NCBI GenBank assembly: GCA_041916775.1
Contig: JAYRYZ010000001.1
Location: forward strand, 295,825 to 359,824
Direction: 5' to 3'
Length of the DNA: 64,000 bases
Source of the DNA: Rhodocyclaceae bacterium
GTDB lineage: Bacteria; Pseudomonadota; Gammaproteobacteria; Burkholderiales; Rhodocyclaceae
The notes under the pieces were generated by a model that saw only the letters and a program-made list of their open reading frames with translations, was not told the DNA's origin and searched no databases. Within the stretch, counting starts at the first letter, position 1. The number at the start of each line of letters is the position of its first letter. Position numbers and translations under genes: made by a program. This document shows, piece after piece, positions 2,023 to 56,948 of the stretch.

Positions 2023-2408
2023 GGGAAGTTCGTCAGGCAATCGCTGCGCAGTCTTTGTGCGTGGAGGAAAGTCCGGGCCCCGCAGGGCAGGATGCCGGCT
2101 AACGGCCGGGCGCCGTGAGGCGACGGAAAGTGCAACAGAAAGCAAACCGCCGATGGCCGCCGCAAGGCGGATCAGGTAAGGGTGAAACGGTGGGGTAAGA
2201 GCCCACCGCGGGTCTGGTAACAGCACCTGGCACGGCAAACCCCATCCGGGGCAAGGCCAAATAGGGGGGCAATGGCGTGGCCCGCGTTGCTCCCGGGTAG
2301 GCTGCTTGAGCGCCGTGGTAACACGGCGCCCAGAGGAATGATTGCCCGGCGCCTATGGCCGTAAGGCCGTTGGCGCTCGACAGAACCCGGCTTATCGGCG
2401 AACTTCCC
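2023..2408 (+). ncRNA. rnpB: RNase P RNA (bacterial type A), rnpB
   Basis: near-identity to E. coli M1 RNA universal blocks: GGAGGAAAGTCCGGGC, AGGGCAGG, AGGTAAGGGTGAAA, GGTAAGAGC-CACC, GGTAACAG, CAAGGCCAAATAGGGG, CCCGGGTAGGCTGCTTGAGC, ACAGAACCCGGCTTATCGG; P1 helix GGGAAGTTCG / CGAACTTCCC closes 2023-2408. Confidence 0.88.
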
Positions 2409-2606
2409 CAATTCTTCAGTTTCGGCAGCGCTTTCCGAGCGCTGTGCCACCTCGCTCCACTTTCCCCCACTTGGCGGGGATTTTCCTCGCTCCTCACGCT
2501 GCGCGACATCAATTCGCGCTATCTGCATTGATTTTTCAGGCTTTATTCATTTTCGCCAGTTTGCGATAAGTCATTGTGTCACAACGAAAAACCCTGGTTT
2601 GTCGGC

Positions 2607-11588: not shown

Positions 11589-12814
11589 GCATGCTTTCCG
11601 GACTCATTTCCCGCGGCGGGCGGTCGGCGCGCAACAGCCCCGAGGCGAGCCGCGCGGTCGAGCGCCTGATGCGGCCGGCGGATACCATTCGCGAACTCGA
11701 CCCGGTGGTGCTGTGGGCCGCGATCGGCCTACTGATGCTGGGCATGGTCATGGTGTTCTCTTCGTCGATCGCCATTGCCGAGGGCAGCCGCTTCACCCGC
11801 AACCAGCCGCACTTCTTCCTGATGCGCCACGCGATCTTCGTCGGCGTCGGCGTGGCGGCCGGATTGCTTGCGTTCCGAGTCACGATGCGCCAGTGGCAGC
11901 AGTATGCACCATGGCTTTTCCTCGGCGGTGTCGCGCTCTTGATCCTGGTGTTGGTGCCGGGCATCGGCAAGGAGGTCAATGGTGCACAACGCTGGCTCAA
12001 TCTCGGCCCGGTGAACCTGCAGCCGTCCGAGCTGATGAAGATCTTCGCCGTGCTTTATGCGGCCGACTATACCGCACGCAAGCTTCAGGACATGGGCAGC
12101 TTCGTACGCGGCTTTGTGCCGATGGCGGCGGTCATCCTGCTAGTGGGCTTCCTGCTGCTGAAGGAGCCGGATTTCGGTGCCTTCGTGGTGATCAGCTGCA
12201 TCGCTTTCGGCGTGCTCTTTCTCGGCGGCATCAACGTGCGGGTGTTTTCCTTGCTCGCCGTGGTGGCGGTGATCGGCTTCATCCTGCTGATCTGGCTGTC
12301 GCCCTATCGCCGCGACCGCATCTTCGGCTTCATGGATCCTTGGCAGGACGCCTACGGCAAGGGCTACCAACTCTCACACGCGCTGATCGCTTTCGGACGG
12401 GGGGAGTGGTTCGGCGTGGGACTCGGAGCGAGCGTCGAGAAGCTCTTCTACCTGCCCGAGGCGCACACCGACTTCCTGCTCGCGGTAATCGCCGAGGAAC
12501 TCGGCTTCGTCGGCGTGCTGACCGTGATCGTGCTGTTCGCGCTGCTGGTGCACCGCGCTTTCGCGATCGGACGTGAGGCCTTGAAGCTCGAGCGCTACTT
12601 CAGCGGATTGGTGGCGATGGGCATCGGCTTGTGGCTGGGTGTGCAGTCCTTCATCAACATGGGCGTGAACATGGGGCTGTTGCCGACCAAGGGCCTGACC
12701 TTGCCGCTGATGAGCTTCGGTGGCTCGGCCATCGTCGCCAACTGCCTGGCGCTCGCAATCTTGCTGCGGGTGGATTGGGAAGTGCGGCAAATGAAGCGTG
12801 GGGTCGCATCATGA
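11585..12814 (+). CDS. ftsW: peptidoglycan glycosyltransferase / lipid II flippase FtsW
   Basis: 409 aa SEDS-family polytopic membrane protein; dcw position; ATGA overlap with murD. Confidence 0.88.
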
Positions 12815-13881
12815 GGACCTTGATGGTGATGGCGGGCGGTACTGGTGGCCACATCTTCCCCGGGATCGCCGTCGCCGAGGTCCTGCGCGCACGCGGCTGG
12901 CGCATCGTATGGATGGGCAACGCGCAGGGCATGGAGGCGCGCCTCGTCCCGGGCTACGGTTACGAGACCGCCTGGGTGCGCTTCTCGGCGCTGCGCGGCA
13001 AGGGACTGCTGACCAAGCTGCTGCTGCCGTGGAACCTGCTGCGTGGTTTCTGGCAGGCGCTCGGCGCGCTGCGCCGGGTGCGCCCCGACGTGGTGCTGGG
13101 TATGGGCGGCTACGTGACCTTCCCCGGCGGCATGATGGCGAGCCTCATCGGCCGGCCGCTGGTGCTGCACGAGCAGAACTCGGTGGCGGGTCTCGCCAAC
13201 CGAGTACTCGCACGGGTGGCCGACCGTGTGTTGAGCGGTTTTCCCGAGGTGCTGCCGGCGGCACAGTGGGTGGGCAACCCGGTGCGTGCCGACATCGCCG
13301 CAATCGCGCCGCCCGCGGCGCGGTTCGAAGAACGCAGCGGGCCGCTACGCGTGCTCGTCGTTGGTGGAAGCCTGGGCGCCGCTGCACTGAACGAAGTCGT
13401 GCCGCGGGCGCTGGCGCGCATCCCGGTGGAGCAGCGTCCGCTGGTGACCCACCAGGCTGGTGCGAAACAGATCGAGGCGCTGCGCTCGGCCTATGCGGCG
13501 GCGGGCGTGGAGGGCGAACTGCTGCCCTTCATCGACGACATGGCGACGCGTTATGCCGAGGCCGACCTGGTGATCTGCCGCGCAGGCGCGCTGACCATCG
13601 CGGAGCTGGCAGCGGCGGGCGTGGCGAGCGTGCTCGTACCCTACCCGCACGCAGTGGACGACCACCAGAGCGGCAACGCGCGTTTCCTCTCGGAGCGCGG
13701 CGCGGCGCGGCTGATGCCGCAGCATGGATTGGATGCCGCGGCGCTTGCGGCACTCCTGATGGACTTGGACCGGCAGACCTTGCTGGGGATGGCGGAGAAG
13801 GCACGCGCGCTGTCGCGCGCCGACGCCGCCGAGGTGGTGGCGAGCGCCTGCGAGGCAGCTGCAGCCAAGGAAAGAGCATGA
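12811..13881 (+). CDS. murG: UDP-N-acetylglucosamine--N-acetylmuramyl-(pentapeptide) pyrophosphoryl-undecaprenol GlcNAc transferase
   Basis: 356 aa; [24 protein letters not shown]-terminus typical of MurG; ATGA overlap with ftsW. Confidence 0.9.
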
Positions 13882-15293
13882 AGCACAAGGTCAAGCACAT
13901 TCACTTTGTGGGCATCGGCGGTGCCGGCATGAGCGGTATTGCCGAGGTGCTGCTCACGCTCGGTTTCACCGTCAGCGGTTCGGATCTCGGCGACAACACC
14001 GCGACGCGGCGACTGAGGGCCCTCGGCGCGCGCGTGATCACCGGTCACGACGCGGCGAACATCGCCGGGGCGGATGCAGTCGTCACCTCCACTGCGGTGA
14101 AGAACGACAACCCCGAGGTGCAGGCCGCGCGTGGGCGCCATGTGCCGATCGTGCCGCGCGCTCAGATGCTGGCCGAGCTCATGCGACTCAAGCAGGGCAT
14201 TGCGATCGCCGGCACCCACGGCAAGACCACCACCACCTCGCTGGTGGCGAGCATACTCGCCGAGGGTGGGCTGGACCCGACCTTCGTGATCGGCGGGAAG
14301 CTCACCGCAGCCGGGGCGAACGCGCGGCTTGGCAAGGGCGATTTTCTGGTGGCCGAGGCGGACGAGTCGGACGCATCCTTCCTGCTCCTCAACCCGGTGA
14401 TCTCGGTGGTGACGAACATCGACGCGGATCACATGGACACCTACGGCCATGACTTCGCACGCCTCAAACAGGCCTTCATCGATTTCATCCAGCACCTGCC
14501 GTTCTATGGCGTCGCGGTGCTGTGCGAGGACGACCCGCACGTGGCCTCGATCATGCCGATGGTGTCGAAGCAGATCGTGCGCTACGGCCTGTCGCCGAAC
14601 GCCAACATCCGCGCCGAGAACGTGCGCGCAGAGGGCGGCCGCATGCTGTTCGACGCGGTGCGCGTGAATGGCACCACCACTCGCCTCCCGATTCAGCTCA
14701 ACTTGCCGGGCATGCACAACGTGCTGAACGCGCTTGCTGCGATCGCGGTGGCGACCGAGGTGCAGGTGCCGGATGAGTCCATCATCAAGGCGCTCGCCGA
14801 TTTCCGCGGCGTCGGGCGGCGCTTCCAGCGCTACGGCGAGATTCTGCTGGCACACGCCGACGGTAGCCCGCGCGGCAGCTTCACGTTGGTGGACGACTAC
14901 GGCCATCACCCAGTCGAGATGGCCGCGACGATCGCCGCGGCGCGCGGTGCCTTCCCCGGACGGCGATTGGTGCTGGCCTTCCAGCCGCACCGTTTCACGC
15001 GTACGCGCGACTGCTTCGAGGATTTCGTAAGGGTGCTCTCCGGGGTGGACGCGCTGTTGCTCGCCGAGGTGTATGCGGCAGGCGAGGCGCCCATCGTGGC
15101 GGCGGACGGCCGTGCGCTGGCGCGCGCGATTCGCCTCGCGGGCAAGGTCGAGCCGCTGTTCGTCGAGCACATCGACGAAATGCCACAGGCGATCCTCTCT
15201 GCTGCTCAGGATCGGGATGTCCTGATCACGATGGGTGCCGGTTCGATCGGTGCAGTGCCGGGCCGGATTGCGAATGCGGAGGATCAGGGGTGA
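13878..15293 (+). CDS. murC: UDP-N-acetylmuramate--L-alanine ligase
   Basis: 471 aa; [25 protein letters not shown] and [10 protein letters not shown] Mur ligase motifs. Confidence 0.9.
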
Positions 15294-25565: not shown

Positions 25566-28500
25566 CTATCTCGCCCGATCCCCGCTGCCGGGTGCGTCCG
25601 GACCGCCCGGCAGCAGGCCGCTCATGCGCTCGACCAGGCCGGACAGGCGCTTCATCTCGTCCCACATCGCGTGATCCATGCGCATCTTGCTGTAGGTGGC
25701 GGTGACCAGTGGTGCGATGACCTTCTCGTAGATCTCGTGCATCTCGCGTAGCGTGTCTGTGAGGCAGTCCACATTGGGCGGATCGATCTCGATGTGCGGC
25801 TCGATCGCACGGATGCCGGCGGCGAGCTCCGCCAGCCCTTCTCGCAGGCTGGTTTCGAGCGCTGGTGCGGCGCGCAGGCCTTCCACCGCGCGCGCGATGT
25901 CGAGCAGCGTGCCGGCGATGCGGGTGCTGCCGTCGGTGTCGTCGCCACCCAGCTTGCGCCGGCGCACGAACTCTTCCTTGATCTCCGTCCAGCGGGCCGT
26001 TTCCTCCGCGGTCTGGCTGCCGAGCAGTTCGGCGAGCCGCAGCAGGTTCTCCTCGGCGCCGCTGGTGAGCGTCTGCGCCTCACCGCGGTAGTGGTCGCGC
26101 AGCAACGCATCGAGCTCCTCGTCTCGCATGAGCGGGGTGATCGCGGTGGCGAGCTTGGCCATGTTGCGATAGCTGCCCTGCAGCTTGAATGGCGGCTCGT
26201 TGCGATAGGCGTCGTCCTGGGCGGCCGACTCGATGTAGGCAAGATTCACCTTCAGGAGCAGGTCGCGGGCGCGGAAGAGGCGCTTCACCAGGCTCGCGAG
26301 CTCGTTGAGCTCGGCGCTGCTGTAGCCGTGACTGAAGGCGCTGTCGGCGAGGTCCTCGCCCTCGGCGAGGCGCACCAGGCGATGCACATCGGCCGGGTCG
26401 CGCGAGGCGAGCGGCAGCAGCAGCGGGTTGGCGGTGAGGCTGTTCTCGATGTACGACAGCGCGAAGAGGTCCTCACGCCCGGCGAGGACGTCGCCCAGGT
26501 TGTAGATATCGGCGCGGTTGGCGAGCATGTCGGGGATCTTGAACACGTCGCCGGACTCGGTGTAGGGGTTGCCCGCCATCACCACCGCGAAGCGCTTGCC
26601 GCGAAGGTCGGCGGTCCATGGCGTGCCGTTCTGCACCGCCTCGATGCGGCGCGTGCCGTCGGCGAGCGCGATGAATTTCTGCAGGAACTCCGGGTTGGTG
26701 TGCTGGATGTCATCGAGATAGAGCATCACGTTGTTGCCCATCGCGAGTCCGAGGTTGAGCTTCTCGAGCTCCTGACGGGCGGCGCTGTGGGTGGCGCCGG
26801 CCGGGTCGATGGCGGTGACGTCGTGCCCCAGCGCCGGGCAATTGATGCGTACGAAGATCATGCCGAGGCGGTCGGCGACATACTCCATGAGCGTGGTCTT
26901 GCCGTAGCCTGGCGGCGAGATCAGCAGCAGCAGGCCGGAACGGTCGGAGCGGCTGGCATCGCCCGCGGCGCCGATCTGACGGGCGAGGTTGTTGCCGATG
27001 ATGGGCAGATACACCTCGTCGATGAGGCGGTTGCGCACGAAGGAGGACAGCGGCTTGGCGCGGAACTGGTCGAGCTGCAGGCGACGCTTCTCGTCCGCGA
27101 CGAGTTGCAGGCGCAAGGCCTGGAGGCGTTCGAAGGCGGGCACATGGGTCGCGCGATGCTGGCGGAAGCGGCGCCAGAAATCGTTGAGGTTGAGCGCAAG
27201 CGTGCCGCCTGCGATGCTGGCATGCTCACCCAGGAGGCCGGATACCACCTTGTCTAGCGCGACGTTGAGGCGTTTGCGCTCGCCGCTGCCCAGCCACAGC
27301 GTGGCGGCGTCCGGCACCCACGGCAGCAGCCGGTCGTGCGCCGCGCCTGACGCGTTGGCCGCCTGCTTGTCGGCCTCGGCATCGCGGTGTGCGGCAAAGG
27401 CCGAGAGCCATTGGCGTGCCAGCTGCCAACGCTCGGCCGGTGCAGCGGCTTCGAGGTCTGCACGCAGCTCGGCCAGCCGGGCACTGCGCTCCAGTTGGCG
27501 TTGCAAGTCCTCGCTCAGTGTCGCGCCGCTGCCGGCCACCACCCAGGCCTCATGGCCGCGCGGTTCGGCGATCTGTCGCACCAGGTATTGTGCCGCCTCC
27601 TGCAGCAGGGCCTCGTCCGGGGCGAAGCCGAACCCGGGCGCGAAGGTGGCGAGCTTGCGGGCCGCGTCCTGTTCCGCCTGCCGCAGCGCCGCGTCATGGC
27701 CGAACAGCGCGTGCATCTGCAGCGCGGCGCGCGCCTGGCGCTGCAGGCTGTCGCGGTCCTGCTCGAAGCCGCCGAACTGCCAGTAGCAGAACGCGAGCGC
27801 GCGCGCCTCCGGGCCGTAGGCGAGCAGTTGCGCGTCGGCCTGCATCACGACCAGCGCGCGCAGGAGCCAGGCCGCGTCATGGTCGTGCACACCGCGCTGG
27901 TAGCCTTCCTGATAGCGGCTGGCGCTGCTGCGGCGGACCAGATCGAGGAGCGGATCGTGGCCCTCGGCGGGGCTTGCGCAGAGCGCCTGCAGGCTTGCCC
28001 AGTCGATGTCGCCACGCCCTTCCAGCGCATCGACGAGCAGGCTGCCGGCGAGGTATTCGGCGCGGCAGAGGCCGCCGCTCTCGGAGACCAACGAGACATC
28101 CCACCACGGGCGCAACGCCTCCAGCGCGGCGTCGTTCGCGGGCGCGAAGTAGTCGGTGCCGGTGAGGTGGAAGGCGAGCCCGCCCTGGCGTGGGACCAGG
28201 GTAAGGTCCAGCGTCTGGCGGTTGACGGTGAAGGCGTGGCGGCCGAAGCGCAGCGTATTGCCGTCCTCGGCGACCAGCTCGCGGCGGTCGCGTACCGCGC
28301 GCACCGCCTGGTCGCGTGCGGTACGCAGGCGGGTGTCGAGGTCGTCGGCCGCGACGCTGGCGCCCAGCGCGCGCAGCTCGGCGATCTGGCTGCGGAGCTT
28401 GGTGAGCAGCGGATCACCGGCGAAATAGCTGTGCACCTGCTCCAGCTCGCCGAACTGTGCGATCCGGCGGGGAATGCCTTCCAGCACCCGTGCCGCCGCA

Positions 28501-30860
28501 TCGGCGAGGGCCTGGCTGCGGCGCTGGCGGGCCTCGCTGAGTGTCTGGCGGCGGGCCGCGACGGCTTCCACCAGCGCCTCGCGCTTGTTGGCGAGGGTTT
28601 CGATGAAGCCCTCCTGCTCGGCGAAGCGGCCCTCGATCTCTTCGAGCTGCGCGAGCAGGCGGGTCAGCGCGTCATCGCACTTCTCCGGGGTGTCGGCGAG
28701 CGCCAGCGCGTTCTCCACCGCCTGGCCGAAGAGCTGGATCTGCGCGCCGAACTCGGCGGCGGCTTCGCGGCTGCCGAGCGCACGGCCGAGCTTGCGTGCC
28801 TCGGCGCGCAGGCGATTCACCTCGGCATAGACCGCCCCGATGCCATCGAGGATGCGCGTGCGCAACAGCGCGTCGCCGCCGGGCAGGTTGCCGAGCTGCT
28901 CGGTGAGGAGGTCGAGGCCGCTGCCGGTGTCGTCCAGCAGCTTGACCTGCGCCGCGATCTCGCTGCTGTTCGCAGCCTGCGGCAGGGTGGCGGCGACCTG
29001 CGCGAGGGTGCTGCGGTAGCCGTCGAAGGCGTGCTCTTCCGACAGGAAGCGCAGGGCGCGCTCGGAGACGCGCTGCTGCGCCTCGTCCACCGCGGCTTCG
29101 AGCGCGGCGATACCGGGGATGTCGGCGTAGCGCAGCTCGCGCAGCATCTGCAGCCGTCCGCGTTGCTCGCGCAGCTGGCCGAGGGCGCGGACGAAGTCGT
29201 CCGGCTTCTGCCACAACATGCCGGCGATGCGGGTCATCAGCTCGCGCTGGGCCAGCTCGGCGGTGTCGAGTGCCTGTCGGGTGTCGCGGCGGATGCTCTC
29301 GATCTTCTCGAACTCGTCGAGCGTGTTGCGCGCGCCGTCCTGGATGGCGCGGACATCCTCGGCGAGCTTGCCGGCTTCATCCGAATCCAGCCAGAAGTAG
29401 GCGTCCAGCGCGCGGCCGCAGTGGCGGATGAGCGCGTCGTAGGCGTTGCGGGTCGGCGTCTGCTCGGCCACCGCGCGTGCGATCGCGGTGAGCTCGGCGA
29501 TGCCGCGCACCAGCTCAGGGTTGCCGATGCGGGCGAAGAAGCCCTGGCTGCTGCGCTCGGCGGTGGCGTGCTCCTCGCTCACGTAGGGTGTCTGCCAGAG
29601 CTGCATCGGGTGGTTGCGCGTGGCGTCCGGCCCCTCGGCCTGGAACACCAGCATGCGGCCATCCTCGAAGCGCGCGTAGCCGTTGCAGAGAATGGGCGTG
29701 GTGAGCGACTTCTCGATCAGGTTGTAGGAGAAGAGCGCGTAGTGGCCCACGCCGGGTTGGTAGAACACGTACAGCACGTCCTCGCCATTGGGCGAGCGCA
29801 GCATGCGCTTGAAGCGCAGCCCGTCGCGCATCTCGGCGGGCAGGTCGAAGCGCTTGGTCTCGCCCGACTGCAGGTAGTAGCCGCCGGGAAAGATGATGCC
29901 GTGATCCTCGGGCAGCTGGATGCACGAGCGGCCGATGGCATCGATGCGGGTGGCGGTGAGGGTGCGGGTGTTGAACACCAGGTAGCGCTCGTCCTTCTCG
30001 CGATACGGACGGATGCGCAGGAGGATCAGCGATCCGATGCGGGCGTAGGCGATCTCGGCATCGGTGAGCGACTGGCTCCTGTCCTCGACCGGCTCGGAAT
30101 AGATACCGAGGCCGGATTCGGTGTTGTTCTCGACCTTGATCGTGAGATCACCGCCGATCGTCTCGACGAACACGGTGTCGAGGATGTTCACATGCGGATG
30201 GCGCCCGCCGACATGGTTGTCGCGGGTGGTCTGGGTCCATTCGAAATCGTGCGTCGGGGGCAGGGCGATGTCGCGTTCGCCGCGATTGTCGATGTAGCTC
30301 AGACGCCCGCCCGGTTCGACGCTCCAGCGGAACACGCGCAGGTCGGTCGCCTGCTGGCCGATCTGGAACGCCGCCAGCAGCTTGTGCTGGTGCACACGCA
30401 GCTGGATCAGGCTGGCCTGCCTGTAATAGGTGTAGAGCTCGCGGAAATCGGCGACGAAGCGTGTGTCGTCGAGAAAGCTGCCGGCAATCGGCACGGCGAG
30501 CAGATCCTCGCTGCCCGGGCCGCCTTCCTCGTCCAACCGGTAGAGTCCGAACACGTCCGAGACCGCGGTCTCCTTGCGCAGTCCGATGAAGACGTTGTAG
30601 CCGAACAGCAGCAGGTCGCCGATGCGCACCAGGTCGCGGGCGATGCAGTTGTTCTCGGTACGTGCGCGGGTGCGCCCGATCAGCGCCTGCTCGGCGCGGC
30701 CGAACTCCTCCAGCCGCGCCGTGTTGAGCGCCGTGGTCTTGCGCAGCAGCTGGCCGCCGAGGTCGGTGAGGCGCTTCTTCAGCAGGGCATAGCTGCCGCT
30801 GTCGGCGACGAGCGCCTCGGTGGCGTCGGCTGCAACGGCGGCGCTGGCTTGGTCGGACAT
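25566..30860 (-). CDS. very large (1764 aa) conserved hypothetical protein with one AAA+ ATPase core of MoxR/AAA_5 type near the C-terminal third and long alpha-helical/coiled-coil central region
   Basis: single uninterrupted ORF; Walker A ISPPGYGKTTL, Walker B VMLYLDDIQ, sensor-like VVMAGNPYTESG...ADIY; about 330 aa of helical heptad-like sequence in the middle; antisense 1203-aa ORF judged spurious; last gene of the PspA/flotillin operon. Confidence 0.8.
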   Translation of the reverse strand: MSDQASAAVAADATEALVADSGSYALLKKRLTDLGGQLLRKTTALNTARLEEFGRAEQALIGRTRARTENNCIARDLVRIGDLLLFGYNVFIGLRKETAVSDVFGLYRLDEEGGPGSEDLLAVPIAGSFLDDTRFVADFRELYTYYRQASLIQLRVHQHKLLAAFQIGQQATDLRVFRWSVEPGGRLSYIDNRGERDIALPPTHDFEWTQTTRDNHVGGRHPHVNILDTVFVETIGGDLTIKVENNTESGLGIYSEPVEDRSQSLTDAEIAYARIGSLILLRIRPYREKDERYLVFNTRTLTATRIDAIGRSCIQLPEDHGIIFPGGYYLQSGETKRFDLPAEMRDGLRFKRMLRSPNGEDVLYVFYQPGVGHYALFSYNLIEKSLTTPILCNGYARFEDGRMLVFQAEGPDATRNHPMQLWQTPYVSEEHATAERSSQGFFARIGNPELVRGIAELTAIARAVAEQTPTRNAYDALIRHCGRALDAYFWLDSDEAGKLAEDVRAIQDGARNTLDEFEKIESIRRDTRQALDTAELAQRELMTRIAGMLWQKPDDFVRALGQLREQRGRLQMLRELRYADIPGIAALEAAVDEAQQRVSERALRFLSEEHAFDGYRSTLAQVAATLPQAANSSEIAAQVKLLDDTGSGLDLLTEQLGNLPGGDALLRTRILDGIGAVYAEVNRLRAEARKLGRALGSREAAAEFGAQIQLFGQAVENALALADTPEKCDDALTRLLAQLEEIEGRFAEQEGFIETLANKREALVEAVAARRQTLSEARQRRSQALADAAARVLEGIPRRIAQFGELEQVHSYFAGDPLLTKLRSQIAELRALGASVAADDLDTRLRTARDQAVRAVRDRRELVAEDGNTLRFGRHAFTVNRQTLDLTLVPRQGGLAFHLTGTDYFAPANDAALEALRPWWDVSLVSESGGLCRAEYLAGSLLVDALEGRGDIDWASLQALCASPAEGHDPLLDLVRRSSASRYQEGYQRGVHDHDAAWLLRALVVMQADAQLLAYGPEARALAFCYWQFGGFEQDRDSLQRQARAALQMHALFGHDAALRQAEQDAARKLATFAPGFGFAPDEALLQEAAQYLVRQIAEPRGHEAWVVAGSGATLSEDLQRQLERSARLAELRADLEAAAPAERWQLARQWLSAFAAHRDAEADKQAANASGAAHDRLLPWVPDAATLWLGSGERKRLNVALDKVVSGLLGEHASIAGGTLALNLNDFWRRFRQHRATHVPAFERLQALRLQLVADEKRRLQLDQFRAKPLSSFVRNRLIDEVYLPIIGNNLARQIGAAGDASRSDRSGLLLLISPPGYGKTTLMEYVADRLGMIFVRINCPALGHDVTAIDPAGATHSAARQELEKLNLGLAMGNNVMLYLDDIQHTNPEFLQKFIALADGTRRIEAVQNGTPWTADLRGKRFAVVMAGNPYTESGDVFKIPDMLANRADIYNLGDVLAGREDLFALSYIENSLTANPLLLPLASRDPADVHRLVRLAEGEDLADSAFSHGYSSAELNELASLVKRLFRARDLLLKVNLAYIESAAQDDAYRNEPPFKLQGSYRNMAKLATAITPLMRDEELDALLRDHYRGEAQTLTSGAEENLLRLAELLGSQTAEETARWTEIKEEFVRRRKLGGDDTDGSTRIAGTLLDIARAVEGLRAAPALETSLREGLAELAAGIRAIEPHIEIDPPNVDCLTDTLREMHEIYEKVIAPLVTATYSKMRMDHAMWDEMKRLSGLVERMSGLLPGGPDAPGSGDRAR

Positions 30861-30946
30861 GGTCGTTCGTTTCCGTTGGCGAGGTCGTCACTGAGCGGGC
30901 GCTGGCGGTCGCAGCACCCGCTCCGGATTGCGCATGGCGTGCGCGA

Positions 30947-33055
30947 CTACGGCTTGCCGCGGAAGCCGTCCAGCAGCGTCTGCAGTGCGGCCTTCTGACT
31001 GTCGTTGCCGTCGCGCAGCACCTTGGTCAGGAGTGCAGCGACCGAGAGGTTCTGCAGCTCGCCCGATGCGCCACCCAGCGCGCCGACGATGTCGCGCACG
31101 TCGCTCACCATGTCGCGCTCGCCATCGAGGTGATCCTTCAGGCCGATCTGCAGCGTCTGGCTCTTGGCGATCGCACCGTCTATGCCCTTGCCCACGGACA
31201 GCGCGTTGACGAAGCGGTCGAAGTAATCGCCCTGGCCGCCGACGATGTCGATCTTCGCGTTGGCGAGCGCAGTGCCGAGCACGTCCGCCTGCTCGCGGGC
31301 GATGGAGGTCTGGGCGTCGATGGCCTTGAGGGTCTCGACGTGCGCGTTCTCCAGGCGCATGCGGAATTCCTCGTGGGCGCGGGTGTCCTCGCTCATCGCC
31401 TTCATCGCCTCGAACTTCTCGCGCAGGCCCTTGGCCTCGGCGTTGAAGCGGGCCTCGACCACCTGCGCCTCGGCCAGTCCGATCTTGATCACCGCGTCGG
31501 CGTCGGCCGCCTTGACGCCGACATCGGCAAGCCCCATGCGCTCCTTGCCCTCGGCTTCGGCGCTCAGGCGCGCCTGCAGCGCTTCGGCTTCGGCATGGCC
31601 GTACTTCACCACCGCTTCGGCCTCGGCGATCTTCACCTTGGCATCGACCAGACCCTGCTTCTCGCGGGCGTCGGCGGTCACCATCATGACCTTCGCTTCG
31701 GCAAGACCCTCGGCCGCGGTCATGGCCTCGATGCCCTCTGCTTCGCGCTTCTTCGCCTCCGCCTGCTTCTCGGCGATCTTCAGGCGCGCCTCGGCCATCG
31801 TCAGCTCTTCGGACGCGGCGTGGCGGGCGCGGCGTTCGAGCGCTTCGGCGGCCTTGACCTCCATGATCATCTTTTCCTCGGCCTGGCCTTCGGCGAGAAT
31901 GATGGTCGATTTCTTGGTGCGATCGGCTTCGGCGAGCACGCGCAGCTCCTTGATCGCCTCTTCCTGTTCCGCGACGGTGCGCTCGACCACGATGCGCTCG
32001 CGCACCACGTCGGCGATCGCCTTCTTCTGCACCTCCACCGCACGATCCTTGTCGATGCGCTGCAGAGTGACTTCCTTCTCGCGGTCGACCACCTCCAGCT
32101 CACGTGCGCGGATGACCTTCTCTTCCTCGATCGCCACGGCGCGCAGGCGGTTGTTCTCGGCGACTTCCTTCTCGCGCAGCACGTTCTCCTGCTGCACGGT
32201 GATGAGCTGTTCGGCCTGCAGGCGGGCGAGCTCGGCCTTGGCGTGTTCTTCCGAGCGGATGCGTTGGGTTTCGGCCTGCTCGCGGGCCTTCACCGATTCG
32301 ACCTCGCGGGACTGGCGCGCCTCGGCGTCGGCCTGCTGGCGCTCGAGCTCGAGCAGCGCCTCGCGCGTCTCGACGTCCTTCTTCTTGATCTGCATCTCCT
32401 CGTTGCGACGCAGCTCGTTGGTGCGCACGTTTTCCGCGGCGGTGAGCTCGGTGATCTTCTTGATGCCCTGGGCGTCGAGGATGTTGCTCGGGTCGAGCTT
32501 GGAGAGCGGGGTTTGCTCGAGGTAGTCGATCGCCGCATCCTCCAGCACGTAGCCCGAGAGGTCGTCGCCGATCTGCGCGATGATCTCGTCGCGGAAGCGG
32601 TCGCGCGCCTGATAGAGCTCGACGAACTCCATCGACTTGCCCACCGTCTTGAGTGCCTCGGAGAACTTGGCGGAGAAGAGCTCCTCCAGCGTCTCGGGGT
32701 TGGAGGCGCGGGCGCAGCCGATGCCCTGCGCAACCTTGAGCACGTCCTCGGCGGTCTTGTTCACCCGCACGAAGAACTTCACCTTGATGTCGGCGCGGAT
32801 GTTGTCCTGGCAGATCAGTCCGTCGTGCCCGGTGCGGTCGATCTCGACCGTCTTGAGCGCGATGTCCATCATCTCGGCCTTGTGGATGATGGGATACACC
32901 ATGCGGCCGGTGAAGGTGACGTCCGGCTCGCTGTTGAGGGTGTTGACGATCATTGCGTAGCCTTGCTCGACCTTGCGGTAGAACTTCGCAAGCATCACGA
33001 ACAGGCTGAGCACGATGAAGGCCACGATGCCGGTGACGATCAGGATGAGCTCCAT
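30947..33055 (-). CDS. flotillin-family SPFH (band 7) protein, long form (702 aa) with extended Ala/Glu-rich coiled coil
   Basis: N-terminal TM MELILIVTGIVAFIVLSLFVMLA then SPFH domain (YRKVEQGYAMIV...) then several hundred aa of EA-repeat coiled coil; GGGGA RBS before ATG 33055; YqiK-like. Confidence 0.85.
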   Translation of the reverse strand: MELILIVTGIVAFIVLSLFVMLAKFYRKVEQGYAMIVNTLNSEPDVTFTGRMVYPIIHKAEMMDIALKTVEIDRTGHDGLICQDNIRADIKVKFFVRVNKTAEDVLKVAQGIGCARASNPETLEELFSAKFSEALKTVGKSMEFVELYQARDRFRDEIIAQIGDDLSGYVLEDAAIDYLEQTPLSKLDPSNILDAQGIKKITELTAAENVRTNELRRNEEMQIKKKDVETREALLELERQQADAEARQSREVESVKAREQAETQRIRSEEHAKAELARLQAEQLITVQQENVLREKEVAENNRLRAVAIEEEKVIRARELEVVDREKEVTLQRIDKDRAVEVQKKAIADVVRERIVVERTVAEQEEAIKELRVLAEADRTKKSTIILAEGQAEEKMIMEVKAAEALERRARHAASEELTMAEARLKIAEKQAEAKKREAEGIEAMTAAEGLAEAKVMMVTADAREKQGLVDAKVKIAEAEAVVKYGHAEAEALQARLSAEAEGKERMGLADVGVKAADADAVIKIGLAEAQVVEARFNAEAKGLREKFEAMKAMSEDTRAHEEFRMRLENAHVETLKAIDAQTSIAREQADVLGTALANAKIDIVGGQGDYFDRFVNALSVGKGIDGAIAKSQTLQIGLKDHLDGERDMVSDVRDIVGALGGASGELQNLSVAALLTKVLRDGNDSQKAALQTLLDGFRGKP

Positions 33056-33140
33056 GGTTTCCCCTTTGTGAGGGCCGGCATGCGCCGGCCGGAAAGTGTG
33101 AAGGCGAGGGTGGTGAGAGTCGGTCTTGCGGACGAGGGGG

Positions 33141-33770
33141 TCAGGCCTCGGCCTGCACCCGGTAGCGTGCCGAGGCCGGGTCGTAGTCGATGATGATGGC
33201 CGTGCCACCGCGCTTGAGCGTGTTGGGCGAATCCGCCACGACCCGGATGTTGATCGATGCGCCGCCCGTCTCCACCTCGGCGCGGCCAAAGGATTCATCC
33301 ACCTTGCCGGTGAGGATGCGGCAGCTGCGCCCGACCAGCGAGGCGTTGGAGACTGCGCTGTGGGTGACGAACAGCCGGCGCATCGGGCGGATCGCGATCG
33401 CGGTGAGCGGGATCGACACCGTGATCGCCACGAGCAGCGCCACGGTGCCCGCAACGAGGCTCAGTATCGCGGTGGGAACCAGCGGCAGCAGCCACAGCCC
33501 GGCGGCGCAGGTGATCGTCCAGCCGGTCAGCACGAGCAGGCTGGCGACGATGGAGAACGGTACGCCACCCAGGCCGAAGGCCACCAGCTTCGCGGCGATC
33601 GAGTCGATCTCGCCGAGATCGGCATCTGCGTCGAGCTCGAGCGCAGGACCGCCGTGCTCGAAGTCGACGAGGCCAACCAGGGCCAGCAACCAGTAGATCA
33701 GCACCACCCCGAGCAGCACCGTGTAGATCGCGGCGGGATAGCTGATGACGACATCGGTGAGGCTGGGCAT
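33141..33770 (-). CDS. NfeD-like / YqiJ-like membrane protein (membrane helices + C-terminal OB-fold)
   Basis: 210 aa from Met at 33770; 3-4 hydrophobic helices then soluble beta-rich C-terminus (GRSCRILTGKVDESFGRAEVETGG...), the arrangement seen upstream of flotillin genes (yqiJ-yqiK). Confidence 0.7.
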   Translation of the reverse strand: MPSLTDVVISYPAAIYTVLLGVVLIYWLLALVGLVDFEHGGPALELDADADLGEIDSIAAKLVAFGLGGVPFSIVASLLVLTGWTITCAAGLWLLPLVPTAILSLVAGTVALLVAITVSIPLTAIAIRPMRRLFVTHSAVSNASLVGRSCRILTGKVDESFGRAEVETGGASINIRVVADSPNTLKRGGTAIIIDYDPASARYRVQAEA

Positions 33771-41817: not shown

Positions 41818-44462
41818 TCAGCTATCCTTCGCAAGCTGCGCTCCGCCGGGCAGCGCGTGCCGCCCGGGGGCGGCGATGCCATGTGCGGCGAGCTGCTCGG
41901 GCAGGTCGGGTTCGAGCAGCGGGTGCGCGAACAGGTAGCCTTGTCCGATGGTGCAGCCACTGTGCTCCAGGAACGCGAGCTGTAGCGGCGTCTCGATCCC
42001 CTCCGCGATCGTCTCCAGGCCAATGGTCTGGGCGAGCTGGATGATGGTGCGGCAGATCGCCTCGTCGTTCTGGTCCAGCCCGATGTCTCGGATGAAGGCG
42101 CGGTCGATCTTGAGCGCGTCGATCGGCATGGTGTTGAGATACGCCAGCGATGAATAACCGGTGCCGAAGTCGTCGATCGACAGGCGTACCCCCAGTGCCT
42201 TGAGCATGCGCATCTGCCGCACCGCGAGCTCGGGCTGCTTCATCGCGACCCGTTCGGTCAGCTCGATCTCGAGCAGATGCCCGGGGAGGCCGTGGCGCAG
42301 CAGCGACTCTTGTACCTCGTCCACGAAGTCGTTGCGCCAGAACTGCACGAAGGAGATGTTGACCGCGACGACGAAGTGATCGAGTCCGTGGTCCAGCCAC
42401 GCCTTGCGCTGCAGGATCGCACGATCCAGCACCCAGCGCCCGATCTCGGTGATGAGGCTGGACTCCTCCGCCACCGGGATGAAGGTGTCGGGCGGGATGA
42501 AGTGGCCATCACGCTGCCAGCGCAACAGCGCCTCGACGCCGGTGATGCGGCCGTCCGCAAGGGCGAGCTGGGGCTGGAAGCGCAGGCTCATTTCGTCGCT
42601 GGCGAGCGCGCGCTTGAGACTGATCTCGATCGCGAGCCGCTCGGAGGTGGTCCGTGCCATGTCCTCGTTGAAGTAGCGCCAGCCATTGCGTCCGGCACTT
42701 TTCGCCTGGTACATCGCCATGTCCGCTTGCTGCAGCAGGGTGTCGAAGGCCTTGCTGTCCTGCGGGTAGAGCGCGATGCCGAGCGAGGCCGACACCGACA
42801 CTTCGGTATCACCCACCGCCATTGGCCGACAGATCGCTTGCACCAGGGCGGTGGCGCGGCGATCGAGCTGAGCTTCGCTGAGCCCCTCCAGCAGCACGAA
42901 CTCGTCGCCACCCAGGCGGCAGACGGTGTCGTCCTCGCGCACCAGCGATCGGATCCGTTGCGCCACCTCTTTCAGGATCTCGTCGCCCGCAGCGTGTCCG
43001 AACACGTCGTTGATGGTCTTGAAGCGGTCGAGGTCGATGAAGCACACCGCGAAGCCATTGCCGTTGCGTTCCGCCGAGCGGATCGCCTGGGCGGCGCGGT
43101 CGTGCAGCAGGTAGCGGTTGGGGGTGCCGGTGAGCGGGTCATAGAAGGCGAGCCGCTCGATCTCCTCTTCCGCCATCTTGCGGTGGGTGATGTCGCTGAA
43201 CACGCCGATGTAGTGGGTGACCTCGCCGGCGGTGTTCATGACCCGGCTGATCGACAGCCACTCGGGATATACCTCGCCGGATTTGCGCCGGTTCCAGATC
43301 TCGCCGGCCCATCGGCCGCTCGTCTCGATCGCCCGCCACATCTCGGCGTAGAAGCTCTGCGGATGGCGCCCGGAGGCCAGGATGGAGGGTTTCTCGCCGA
43401 GCACATCGTGTTCCTCGAAGCCGGTGATCTGGCAAAAGGCGTTGTTCACCGAGATGACCCGCTGCTCCGCGTCTGTGATCACGATGCCTTCGGTGCCGGC
43501 GCGATAGATCTGGGCCGCGAGCTCCAGCCGGATGTCCTTCTGGCGGCTCTCGGTGATGTCGGTGGTGATGCCGCCGATACCGAGCACCGCGTTATTCTTG
43601 TCCAGTAAGGGAAACTTGTGGCTCAGGAAGTATCTGACCTCCGCGCCCGGCCGGTGCAGCTTCTCCTCGTAGAGCATGGCCTGGCGGTTGCTCATCACCA
43701 AGCGGTCGTTCTGCTCGTGTTGCTCGGCATCCTGTGTGGGCAGCCAGCCGGTGCGGCGCCGGCCGATCAGCTCCGATTCGTTTTGGCCAACGAGCTTCTG
43801 CAGCGCCTTGTTCGCGAGTAGGCACCTGCCCTCCGGGTCGAACGCGTAGATCAGGGCGTCGCTGTTGTTCAGCACGGTCGAGAAGATGCTGCGGGTGCGC
43901 GACAGCTCGGAGTCCGCGGTGCGGTCGAGGCACAGCGCGAGGTAGTGGGCGTCGAGGTGGTAGTCCTGCGGCAGCAGGCACAGATGCACCTCCATGTGGC
44001 GCTCCTCGCCCTCGTGGCCGCGGAAGGCGAGATCGAGCGGGCTGCGGTTGACGGGCGTGGTCGTGGCGCGCAGCCTCGCGATCAGCGCTGCTGCACCGTC
44101 GTGCAGCACGAGGCGCAGCAGCGAGTGCTGCCGCAGCGTTTGCACGCTGCTGAAGCCGAAGACCTTCGCGGCAGCCTCGTTGGCCTCCTCGACGATGCCA
44201 CGATCGTCTATGACGAGTGCGGGCATGGGCAGGGCGGTGAATAGCAGCTGGTAGCGACGGCGTACGCTCTCTTCCGCGAGTCGGGACGCGATCAGCTCCT
44301 GGTTCTGGATATCGAGCTCGGCGTGATACACACGCAACTCGTGCATGAATTCGCCGAAATCTGCAGCAGCGCCCTCGTCCAGCCGGCCGATGCCGGCCTC
44401 GCCGCGCGACAGCGCCCGCTCTGCGCGCAGGCGCAGGGTGTCGACCCGGGAGCGGCTTTCAC

Positions 44463-44466
<4 letters not shown>
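41818..44466 (-). CDS. PAS(x3)-GGDEF-EAL c-di-GMP turnover protein
   Basis: 882 aa from ATG 44466 (ATGA overlap with upstream gene); GGDEF motif RLGGDEF; EAL motifs EALLRW and DDFGTGYSS. Confidence 0.85.
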
Positions 44467-45506
<1,040 letters not shown>

Positions 45507-47252
45507 CTACTCGTCGCCGCGCGGCTGCATGGGACGCACGCTCAGCCGGATCACCTTCTCGCTGCCGTCGTCCTGCGTCACGCGCAGCAGGTCCGAGACC
45601 ATCGCCTCACGCTCCTTCGAGGCCTTGAAGAGCAGCGCCGATGCGACCGGTACGAGGTTCTCGGGCAGGATGCGCGACAACTCCAGGCTGGCCGAACCCT
45701 CTCTGGCCCGGAAGTAGGGCTGCACTCGGCCGAAGAGGTGGATCGCCTCGTGCCGGTCATTGACCAGGATCGCAGGCGGCACGTACTTCTCGAGCAGGAC
45801 GTTCATGGCCTCGTCGGTGGCGACACCATCCTCCTGCAGCCTGTGGCGTTCGCTGGCGCGCCGCAGTGGCGCGCGCTCCGTCATGTATGGACCGCGGGCA
45901 CCCGGCACGCCCAGCCCCAGGTTGACGCTGGTGGCCGCTTCCGTTCTGCGGAAGAGCTTGTGCTTGCCATGGATGGTGGCGAAGCCGCTGCTCTGGCCCG
46001 AAAGCGATTCGCTCGAACCGAGCAGCATGTAGCCCTGTTGTTCGATTGCGTACTGCAGCCGGTCCAGCGCGCGCTTCTGCGCATCGGGGGTGAAGTAGAT
46101 CAGCGTGTTGCGGCAGCTGACCAGGCTCATCCGGGTAAACGGCGGATCGCTCAGCAGGTTGTGGCGTGCGAACACGATGCACTGGCGAAGCTCCTGCTTC
46201 ACCACATACTGGTTGCCGTTGCGGGTGAAGAAGCGTTCCAGACGCTCGGGCGTGAGCTCTGCCGCAGCCGACTCGGGGTAGCGTCCGGCCGCGGCGAACT
46301 CGACGTTGTGCTGGTTCACGTCGGTTGCGAAGACCTTCAGGCTCGGCCAGCGCCGCAGCCGCTCGAAGGCCTCGAAGAAGGTGATCGCGATCGAGTAGGC
46401 CTCCTCACCCGTGGAGCATCCCGCCACCCAGACCCTGAGTGCTCCGCCGGCGACGGCCTGGCCGACCAGTTCGTCGACGACTCTGCGCGCGAGCGTGTCG
46501 AACACCTCCGGGTCACGGAAGAAGCTCGTCACCGGGATCAGCAGCTCGCGGCGCAGCACTGCGACCTCGTTCACATCCTGCTCGAGCAGCCCGAGGTACT
46601 CGGCGAAGCTGCGCATGTGCCGAACCTGCATGCGCCGCTCGATACGGCGGTTGAGCGTCGCGGATTTGTAGTCGTTGAAGTCGATGCCGCTGATCTGCAG
46701 CAGCAACTGGATGATGCCCTGGCGCGCCTCGTCCTCGGTGAGCGGTGTGTTGGCGCTGCCCTCCCGCTGTGGCAGCTCATCCTCCGGCGGCAGGTTGCCG
46801 ATATGCGACTGGATGCGTGCGGCCAGCTTGTCGGCGCCGAGCACGGCATCCACCAGTCCGGTCGCGATCACGCTGCCGGGCATGCCGTCGAACTTGGCTT
46901 CGCGCGGTTCCTGCGCGAGCAGGAAGCCTCCGGCAGCGTTGAGTGCAGTCGCGCCGCGCGTGCCATCGGAGCCGGTTCCCGACAGGATGACGCCGATGCT
47001 GCGGCTGCCGAAGTCGTCGGCCAGGGCGCCGAAGAAGATGTCGATCGGCAGGGTCAGAAGGTGGGGATGTTTGGGTGTCAGACGGAAGCGTCCGTCCTGG
47101 ATACGCATGATCGTGCCCGGTGGGATCAGGAAGATCTGGTTGGCACCGATGGGCAGGTCGTCTTCCACCATGCGCACTTTCATGCGGGTGTAGCGCGCCA
47201 ACAGATCGGTCATCATGCTCTTGTGGTCGGGCGACAGATGCTGGATGACCAC
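45507..47252 (-). CDS. CheB methylesterase catalytic domain - CheR methyltransferase fusion (as annotatable ORF from GTG 47252; N-terminal beta-strand lies upstream of an in-frame TAG)
   Basis: CheB catalytic motifs (VVIQHLSPD..., GSDGT) then CheR N and SAM-methyltransferase domain ([16 protein letters not shown]); in-frame TAG at 47295-47297 separates it from the 47298-47417 fragment encoding ...[15 protein letters not shown]. Confidence 0.75.
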   Translation of the reverse strand: [581 protein letters not shown]

Positions 47253-47297
47253 GAAGGCGGCCCCGGTGTCAGGTGGGCAATGGTTGAAGAAGCGCTA

Positions 47298-47417
47298 GAG
47301 CGCCTCCAGCCCGCCTGCCGAGGCACCAATGGCAACGACGAACCCCTGGAAGGCGCCCTCCGTGGTCTCACAGTCTTCCCTGGCAGACGTCGTCGGTGCG
47401 GCTTTCCTGCGGGTCAT
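47298..47417 (-). pseudogene. 5' fragment of the CheB-CheR gene (encodes MTRRK...[20 protein letters not shown], the CheB N-terminal strand), cut off from the body by an in-frame amber codon
   Basis: same reading frame as 45507..47252; ATG 47417 forms ATGA overlap with stop of upstream MerR/B12 gene, GGAG RBS; TAG at 47295-47297. Confidence 0.5.
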
Positions 47418-48349
47418 TCGGTACTCCGGTGCGTTCTTGTACGGTGTGGTAGATGTCCCGCAAGGGCACGCCGAATGGACTCGGCATCGCCACAGACCGT
47501 GATCTCCTGCTGGTCGCGGGTGCGCGCGCAGGATGCGCCAGCGCCGCCCAGCCACAATGCGCAGCGTGCCGGCAGCGTAGCGCGCAGCGCCCGCGCGAAG
47601 CGATGGATGGCACGTGCTGCATAGGCTCTGCTGACCGAGAGCCCGACGATGTCGGCGCCGCTGTCGCGTGCGGCTGCGGCGAGTTCCTCCAGCGGTGTTT
47701 CGGCGCCGAGCGTGATACAGGCGACGCCCTCTGCGAGCAGGATCCGCTTCGCCATGTCGAGCCCCAGCACATGTCGTTCGCCCGGCGGCGTGCTGAGCAG
47801 AGCGAGCGGCTGCCCGGTCCGGGACTCGGGAGGGTGTTTGCCGGAGGATACGGCGAGGACGTCATGCACGATCCCGCTGATCGCATGCTCCTGCCACACC
47901 CGCAATTGCCCTGCTGACCAAGCCTGCCCCACCGCCTGCATCAAGGGTGCGGCGCAATCCTCGATGAAGCCCACCTCATCCAACTGCGCGCGCAGCGCGA
48001 GCAACTGCCCGCGCAGCATGGTGAAATCGCCCGCGCCCGCGAGCGCGACGAGTGCCTCGACCTGAGTGGACTTCTGCGGCAGCGTTTGGGTGGCGGGCTC
48101 CCCGCGGTGGGCCATCGCGAGCGCGTCGGCCACCGGGTGGCCGCACTGCATGAGGCGTCGCGCAATCAGCAGCTGACGCCGTTGCAACTCGTCGTACTGG
48201 CGCTTGCCGCCGACCCGGTAAGGCACTGGCCAACCGTGCCGTGTTTCCCATTTGCGCAGCACATCCGGACTGATTCCCAACTGAGCAGCGACGGTACCGA
48301 TTGCAAGCAAGTGACCTTCTCCAGACACACGGCGGGCGCAGGTGAGCAT
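47414..48349 (-). CDS. CarH/LitR-like MerR-family transcriptional regulator with cobalamin (B12)-binding domains
   Basis: N-terminal MerR HTH LLAIGTVAAQLGISPDVLRKWETRHGW; B12-binding_2 helical bundle carrying W-x9-EH (AWSAGQLRVWQEH); Rossmann B12-binding domain with E-x-H-x-x-G (GERHVLG) and GG motif; start taken at Met 48349. Confidence 0.78.
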   Translation of the reverse strand: MLTCARRVSGEGHLLAIGTVAAQLGISPDVLRKWETRHGWPVPYRVGGKRQYDELQRRQLLIARRLMQCGHPVADALAMAHRGEPATQTLPQKSTQVEALVALAGAGDFTMLRGQLLALRAQLDEVGFIEDCAAPLMQAVGQAWSAGQLRVWQEHAISGIVHDVLAVSSGKHPPESRTGQPLALLSTPPGERHVLGLDMAKRILLAEGVACITLGAETPLEELAAAARDSGADIVGLSVSRAYAARAIHRFARALRATLPARCALWLGGAGASCARTRDQQEITVCGDAESIRRALAGHLPHRTRTHRSTE

Positions 48350-48395: not shown

Positions 48396-48538
48396 ATTGA
48401 TGCATGTCATGAGTCGGAGACGACACACGCCGTCGGGAGCCGCTCGCGTTGCGCAGATGCAACAGCGATCGGCTCCCCGGCGGCAGTTCGCGCGCGCATC
48501 TCTCAGTAGCCTGCGGTGAAGCGCCTCCCGGTGTGGCG

Positions 48539-48781
48539 CGCCTGCGGACGGACTCGGCGACAAGCCTGAGGGCCTTGCTGCAGCAGGGGGCGGGTGTTTC
48601 GATACTCGACCAGCTCAGCGCCGAGGCGGGGCTGAAGAGCGGCGTGCTCTCGCGACTGTTGCCGGACTGGGCCTTGCCAACTGGCGGCGTGTATGCCGTA
48701 TTTCCGCCCGGCCGACATGTGCCCGCAAAGGTGCGGGCCTTCATCGCGTTCCTGCGCGAGAACCTCGCTGGCCGGGTGTGA
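48539..48781 (+). pseudogene. C-terminal remnant (about 80 aa) of a LysR-family regulator substrate-binding domain
   Basis: ...LRALLQQGAGVSILDQL...LSRLLPDWALPTGGVYAVFPPGRHVPAKVRAFIAFLRENL is the canonical LysR C-terminus; no room upstream for the HTH and the rest of the effector domain (CarH-like gene abuts at 48397). Confidence 0.5.
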
Positions 48782-54526: not shown

Positions 54527-56672
<2,146 letters not shown>

Positions 56673-56718
56673 GCGCTTGATGCGTTCGGGGTTCTTGTGG
56701 ATAATGATGGGCTTCCCA

Positions 56719-56803
56719 GCCGGGATGGCGGAATCGGTAGACGCAGCGGATTCAAAATCCGCCGCCGCAAGGTGTGGGGGTTCGAGTCCCCCTCCCGGCA
56801 CCA
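56719..56803 (+). tRNA. tRNA-Leu (anticodon CAA), type II with long variable arm, CCA encoded
   Basis: acceptor GCCGGGA/TCCCGGC, 3-bp D stem, anticodon stem GCGGA/TCCGC with loop TTCAAAA, variable arm CGCCGCAAGGTGT, T arm GGGGG-TTCGAGT-CCCCC, discriminator A + CCA. Confidence 0.85.
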
Positions 56804-56948
56804 CAGCCTCGGGTCGCAAGCAGACCGCGGTTTCGCTCTGGCGTTCCAGCCGTGATTGAGCGTCCCTTCCGCGTCAGCGCTGCGAGGGGCGCGATTATAG
56901 GCTGAAGCAGCGACACTTGGCGTGCCCGGCTTCAGCCTTGCCTCTGGA

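Follow-up and report, generated by a model that had tools for sequence, protein, structure and literature searches.

Amber codons in a CheB–CheR–PAS fusion gene of a Rhodocyclaceae bacterium: a probable young pseudogene

CheB/CheR fusions and the interrupted gene

Proteins that join CheB, CheR and PAS domains in a single chain have the JGI annotation 'two-component system, chemotaxis family, CheB/CheR fusion protein' (KEGG K13924). A literature search on these fusions gave two incidental mentions and nothing of use. The other point of reference is canonical CheB, with an N-terminal receiver domain ahead of the catalytic domain; solved structures are PDB entries 1A2O, 1CHD, 3SFT and 6YMZ. The gene described here was found on the minus strand of a 64-kb stretch of DNA from a Rhodocyclaceae bacterium (the window), and it was first noticed as a CheB gene with an in-frame TAG codon inside its catalytic domain. 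The TAG is there, and it recurs on other contigs. The gene around it is larger than was thought, however, and of the fusion type.

Read through its stops, the gene comprises 984 codons (44463..47417, minus strand) and specifies, in order, CheB_methylest (residues 28–202), CheR_N (235–281), CheR (296–486), a coiled coil (around 690–730), PAS_10 (745–850) and PAS_4 (862–965), the domains being assigned by Pfam on the conceptual translation. It shares with CheB/CheR-PAS fusion proteins the same domain order, a Ser-His-Asp triad and EExx[A/S][S/T/V] heptads. It differs from them in that its frame is broken by two TAGs, and no intact protein can be made from it by standard decoding. The CheB domain is homologous to the catalytic domain of the canonical enzymes (E = 1e-15 to 1e-18) and matches PF01339 over its full length (profile positions 1–174 of 174), scoring 176.6 bits where the cut-off is 24. 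The GASxGG serine, QH histidine and GxGxDG aspartate of canonical CheB all have counterparts here: Ser33 (GASAGG), His60 (IQHLS) and Asp151 (GTGSDG) align with the GASTGG, QHM and GMGxDG of 6YMZ and 3SFT. To this extent the initial naming of the gene as CheB is right. The esterase domain begins at residue 28, though, Pfam finds no Response_reg domain in the conceptual translation, and CheR and PAS domains follow; the gene is therefore not a canonical CheB gene but a CheB–CheR–PAS fusion without a receiver.

The first stop, TAG1, occupies codon 41 (47295..47297, minus strand), in the reading ...GGG CTG GAG GCG CTC TAG CGC TTC TTC..., between the codons for the catalytic residues Ser33 and His60. 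The CheB_methylest domain spans it, and so is not encoded by one uninterrupted frame: Ser33 is parted from His60 and Asp151. Upstream lies a 40-codon fragment (47295..47417) with the GASAGG serine motif (47327..47310) and what is evidently the native start. A GGAG Shine-Dalgarno-like motif (47424..47427) sits 6 nt 5' of the ATG at 47417..47415, and this ATG shares bases with the upstream gene's TGA (47416..47414) in the form ATGA (47417..47414). The ribosome-binding site and coupled start assigned earlier to the 40-codon piece are thus both visible, and translation from ATG 47417 through the stop yields exactly the peptide first reported.

Where the original prediction saw a single TAG replacing one residue, it overlooked a second, in-frame with the first, at codon 637 (TAG2; 45507..45509, minus strand). 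This is a C-to-T transition; sister strains and near relatives have CAG (Gln). Between the two stops lies a 581-codon ORF (45507..47252, minus strand) that runs from GTG 47252 to TAG2 and comprises the remainder of CheB, without Ser33, together with CheR_N and CheR. Its GTG is the first in-frame start after TAG1, and is a Val codon of the conserved FVVIQH motif; gene callers annotate the ORF as a protein in its own right (P0121). Directly 3' of TAG2 come the codons ATG ATG, and from there a 347-codon ORF (44463..45506, minus strand) encodes the coiled coil, with its four heptads, and PAS_10 and PAS_4. The gene ends in TGA (44465..44463), which overlaps the ATG at 44466 of the next gene.

The coiled coil deserves a remark of its own. 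Within 45228..45356 (minus strand; codons 688–730) are four tandem heptads—SNEELQAT, TNEELMAS, SNEELQSS and SNEELQSV—each of which fits E-E-x-x-[A/S]-[S/T/V], the consensus classically given for methylation sites in methyl-accepting chemotaxis proteins. Column by column, conservation here exceeds 90% across 120 aligned sequences, and 108 of the 120 have at least four such motifs. Judging from this pattern, the CheB–CheR fusion may carry its own methyl-accepting substrate.

The fusion gene is the second of five in a minus-strand signalling cluster: a MerR/B12-binding regulator, the fusion gene, a PAS-GGDEF-EAL gene, a hybrid histidine kinase and a kinase-REC-REC-GGDEF gene. The first of these (47414..48310, minus strand) combines a MerR helix-turn-helix and B12-binding domains in the manner of CarH/LitR; it is intact, according to Pfam and to the gene calls in the Logan loci, and is translationally coupled to the fusion gene. 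The third (41818..44466, minus strand), PAS-PAS-GGDEF-EAL by Pfam, is coupled to it in turn through an ATGA overlap. The arrangement suggests that the CheBR, GGDEF-EAL and kinase genes may be under B12 or light control. Elsewhere in the window (2025..2410, plus strand) is a class A RNase P RNA (312 bits).

Orthologues and sister strains

Intact versions of the gene are plentiful. A scan of species-representative genomes found uninterrupted genes in Pseudothauera lacus (80% identity) and in an Azoarcus MAG (72%), and a protein search found more than 100 homologues of the same architecture, 57–90% identical, mostly about 960–1030 aa long, and likewise uninterrupted. The 120 best of these all have CheB_methylest, CheR_N, CheR, coiled coil, PAS_10 and PAS domains. 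Because homology to these uninterrupted proteins of about 980 aa continues unbroken on both sides of TAG1, the interrupted frame is not a chance juxtaposition of ORFs.

Comparison with orthologues was among the checks originally proposed, and its outcome is clear. Codon 41 specifies Glu in 118 of 119 aligned homologues and Asp in the other; in P. lacus the codon is GAG. Canonical CheB differs at this position: of the two chains shown aligned, 6YMZ has Arg and 3SFT has Asp, where the fusion family has Glu. Codon 637, by comparison, is variable among the 119, with Gln in the nearest relatives; in the P. lacus and Azoarcus proteins, codon 41 is read as Glu or Asp, and codon 637 as Gln or Lys. The possibility that orthologues naturally begin at the downstream GTG proved false: orthologous proteins start at the upstream ATG and include GASAGG, and none among the homologues compared starts at the GTG.

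Among the sequences compared, TAG1 occurs only in strains that match the window at about 99% identity; every homologue at or below 90% has a sense codon in its place. The closest lineage with an intact gene (980 aa) is represented by an ENA MAG, L093, whose copy of the gene is 88.7% identical in nucleotide sequence. Across the sampled TAG1 lineage the stop is ubiquitous. The 40-aa product that ends at it has exact matches on 21 contigs in a protein collection, and 10 of the 21 were fetched for comparison of the whole locus. All 10 of these Logan loci have TAG1; they come from as many SRA runs, spread over four accession series, and are 99.1–100% identical to the window.

They differ in what else they have. 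An independently assembled contig from SRR9673766, 99.7% identical to the window, has TAG1 but CAG at codon 637. Four loci (L083, L086, L087 and L088) have TAG1 alone. TAG1 and TAG2 occur together, in this sample, solely in the window and in L085 (SRR26835462), which is 100% identical to it. Two more (L084 and L089; Logan SRR28981362 and SRR28981387) are without TAG2 and have, instead, a third independent amber, TAG3, at codon 447 (46077..46079, minus strand). The window has CAG here; in the two sister strains a change at window position 46079 has made it TAG. The residue struck, Gln447 of the CheR domain, is invariant, being Gln in 119 of 119 homologues. Through all of this, the roughly 2.95 kb of the gene has accumulated no frameshift or indel in the loci compared.

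No allele above 99% identity to the window turned up with sense at codon 41, and so TAG1 looks fixed in the sample—as would also be expected were it tolerated, or useful. Two further searches add little: an exact-pattern scan of JGI metagenomes around codon 41, with NNN in place of the stop, gave 0 matches and is uninformative about an intact allele, and a search for a near-identical intact N-terminus with the first 147 aa, Glu at 41, gave a best match of 70%, a weak result as it also missed the known 90% relative. One contig is odd in another respect. At the end of the L089 Logan contig, equivalent to 48007..48085 of the window, 13 differences cluster within 80 bp; this is probably chimeric sequence where the contig ends, or else a segment recombined from another strain, and it was left out of the polymorphism counts below.

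Selection, mutation and the course of decay

Measured against the sister lineage L093, the fusion gene has a dN/dS of 0.092 at a dS of 0.49, much like the downstream PAS-GGDEF-EAL gene (0.11); the upstream MerR-B12 gene is comparatively high, at 0.30. For nearly all of the time since these lineages parted, then, the fusion gene was under purifying selection, and TAG1 must be recent. Within the TAG1 lineage, the picture changes. Polymorphisms in the fusion gene number 8 synonymous, 5 missense and 2 nonsense, and this 8:7 spectrum is incompatible with an omega of 0.1 (P = 0.011). Changes in two flanking genes, MerR-B12 and adenylosuccinate lyase, total 9 synonymous to 1 missense (Fisher P = 0.088 against the fusion gene), the MerR-B12 gene itself having 6 to 0. 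In the fusion gene dN/dS has risen from 0.09 to about 0.3, and by the direction of this small sample, selection within the lineage looks relaxed. The synonymous share, 8 of 15, is somewhat above strict-neutral expectation (P = 0.02–0.10, depending on the mutation model, and from few sites), and partial residual constraint on the part downstream of TAG1 is possible, on a restarted CheR-PAS product in the TAG1-only strains, for example.

That every stop is amber follows from the composition of the gene. It contains 63 GAG, 36 CAG, 20 TCG, 18 AAG and 17 TAC codons, but just 3 CAA and 2 CGA, and under several mutation models 70–74% of random nonsense mutations in it would produce TAG. In so GC-rich a gene an all-amber pattern is thus to be expected; the probability that three of three nonsense mutations are TAG is about 0.34–0.41. 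Both secondary stops, at codons 447 and 637, are CAG-to-TAG transitions. There is a caution here for others: a nonsense mutation in a GC-rich genome is nearly always amber, and several TAGs in one gene are not by themselves a sign of recoding.

Taken together, these observations make it very probable that the gene is a young pseudogene of a CheB–CheR–PAS fusion of about 984 aa, still in the course of decay, that codon 41 is not a recoding site and that TAG1 is not an artefact. A nonsense mutation was among the explanations first offered, and it is the one that the data favor: orthologues have Glu (GAG in P. lacus) at this codon, there is a second TAG here and a third in sister strains, and selection is apparently relaxed. 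The founding event would have been a G-to-T mutation, GAG (Glu41) to TAG, now carried by every sampled member of this Zoogloeaceae/Rhodocyclales lineage. The adenylosuccinate lyase sequence, with its best named match at 90%, assigns the bacterium to the Azoarcus/Thauera/Pseudothauera group. Ribosomes entering at the native, coupled ATG (47417) would terminate after 40 codons, and because termination falls between the codons for Ser33 and His60, no methylesterase could result; restart products, if there are any, would be without Ser33. Most of the remaining 2.8 kb or so would go untranslated, a length that may have polar effects on the signalling genes further down. Once the gene was dead, selection on it would relax and further, independent hits would be free to accumulate in sub-lineages. 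Such later hits are what we observe: CAG637 to TAG in the window strain (45509..45507), and CAG447 to TAG in others. Loss of the gene would have been either neutral or favored.

Decay is not confined to the fusion gene. Upstream, on the plus strand (48449..48781), is the remnant of a LysR-family gene, of which nothing is left but the substrate-binding domain's C-terminal half (Pfam profile positions 112–208 of 209). Compared with L093, a deletion of about 1.38 kb (alignment gap L093:2493-3873), with its junction near 48535..48544, has removed the N-terminus of LysR together with an NmrA-like NAD-binding gene. This truncation is further decay beside the pseudogene.

For annotation the consequence is simple: the ORFs of 40, 581 and 347 codons should be entered as one flagged CheB/CheR-PAS pseudogene, not as separate proteins. 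For biology, the locus offers a small, clean case, from a natural population, of a gene decaying step by step, with one nonsense mutation in common and differing second hits. It also suggests that the lineage now does without one of the input modules in a signalling cluster built from a B12 regulator, c-di-GMP enzymes and histidine kinases.

Other readings and known systems

Of the alternatives, the one that survives best, though we consider it unlikely, is that the gene still functions in pieces. Reinitiation after TAG1, at GTG 47252 or at the ATG codons 68/69, would yield a CheR-PAS protein dead as an esterase; in the window strain, termination at TAG2 and reinitiation at the adjoining ATG ATG would yield a separate coiled-coil-PAS protein, and translational coupling to the downstream PAS-GGDEF-EAL gene would be kept. 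The CheR and PAS domains do lie entirely downstream of TAG1, indels have not accumulated, and the synonymous share within the lineage is, as noted, a little over the neutral expectation. The ATG ATG immediately after TAG2 would fit this reading, but it is ancestral—relatives with an intact gene read QMMLL at this point—and so is not a new adaptation for reinitiation. GTG 47252 and ATG codon 68 encode Val and Met in conserved motifs, and neither has a clear GGAGG-type Shine-Dalgarno sequence ahead of it. Of the 15 polymorphisms, 7 are missense or nonsense, and TAG3, moreover, strikes an invariant residue inside the CheR domain, from which it appears that the CheR part is expendable in L084 and L089, at least.

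Recoding is less likely still. By this account amber suppression, or programmed read-through, decodes the TAGs, and the full-length protein is made, possibly at a reduced and regulated level. Each of the three disabling mutations seen in the lineage is a TAG; TAG1 stands in all the strains sampled, with the rest of the frame intact; and it is followed by C, and in E. coli UAG-C terminates comparatively weakly. The first of these points loses its force once composition is considered, since chance alone would make all three TAG quite often. The stop is absent, too, from every orthologue at 90% identity or less, and it replaces a Glu that hardly varies, whereas the amber suppressors commonly obtained in a single step put in Gln, Tyr, Ser, Leu, Lys or Trp.

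What lies around the stops gives recoding no support either. In the 86 nt 3' of TAG1 and TAG2, predicted RNA structure is no better than that of shuffled sequences (MFE z = -0.07 and -0.34, respectively), and Rfam has no match 3' of either stop. The 64-kb window contains no tRNA-CUA, nor any other suppressor tRNA or pyl gene. The one tRNA that it does contain, tRNA-Leu(CAA) (56719..56803, plus strand), is on the other strand from the long ORF that includes queA (55629..56819) and sits at that ORF's 5' end, from which we conclude that queA probably starts downstream of the tRNA.

TAG is, besides, a normal terminator in this DNA. The statement that the locus uses TGA stops almost exclusively is roughly right, but TAG ends three other real genes in the window: a DUF3686 ATPase gene (25566), an 835-aa ORF (30947) and rlmN (62917). 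The fusion gene apart, none of the window's genes is interrupted by a TAG. Genome-wide reassignment of the codon was rejected in the same way: when the window was rescanned with TAG as sense, internal TAGs in a real frame appeared in the fusion gene only, an apparent pair on the minus strand (12595..13890) proving to be antisense to murG/murC. The first two TAG-terminated genes are curious for another reason. They adjoin one another (25566..33454, minus strand), the ATPase being a DUF3686/DUF7902/AAA protein of 1764 aa and the 835-aa ORF having no Pfam match, and they lie near PspA and DUF2170 genes; PADLOC gave only marginal LmuB-like matches to this cluster, nothing meaningful.

A variant of the recoding idea gives TAG1 a use. 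If UAG were partly decoded, by a natural suppressor tRNA or by read-through at UAG-C, TAG1 could act as a translational attenuator of the full-length sensor, and would set a very low level of this CheB–CheR–PAS protein within a B12/light-linked, c-di-GMP signalling operon. The idea is very improbable.

Sequencing or assembly error, finally, with a sense codon in the true sequence, can be set aside almost entirely: nothing favors it for TAG1, which recurs unchanged in 10 separately assembled SRA runs whose sequences depart from the window elsewhere, and although TAG2 is known only from the window and from L085, which might be the window's own strain or even derive from its very reads, a second, independent assembler recovered it, and both stops are substitutions rather than homopolymer indels.

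Set beside systems that are already understood, the fusion gene resembles programmed read-through and natural amber suppression—of the supE-tRNA or pyrrolysine kind—in one respect, an in-frame UAG in an otherwise intact and conserved frame. It is unlike them in several: its UAG is not conserved, no RNA element lies downstream, UAG serves as a terminator in neighboring genes, and nonsense has struck invariant residues. With ordinary nonsense pseudogenes, in contrast, it shares a sense codon in orthologues, a mutation confined to a shallow clade, independent secondary nonsense mutations and an adjacent deletion. It is slightly unusual among these in being present in every sampled strain and yet still free of indels. 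What the population data at this locus provide is an unusually well-documented example of what is very probably an ordinary pseudogene.
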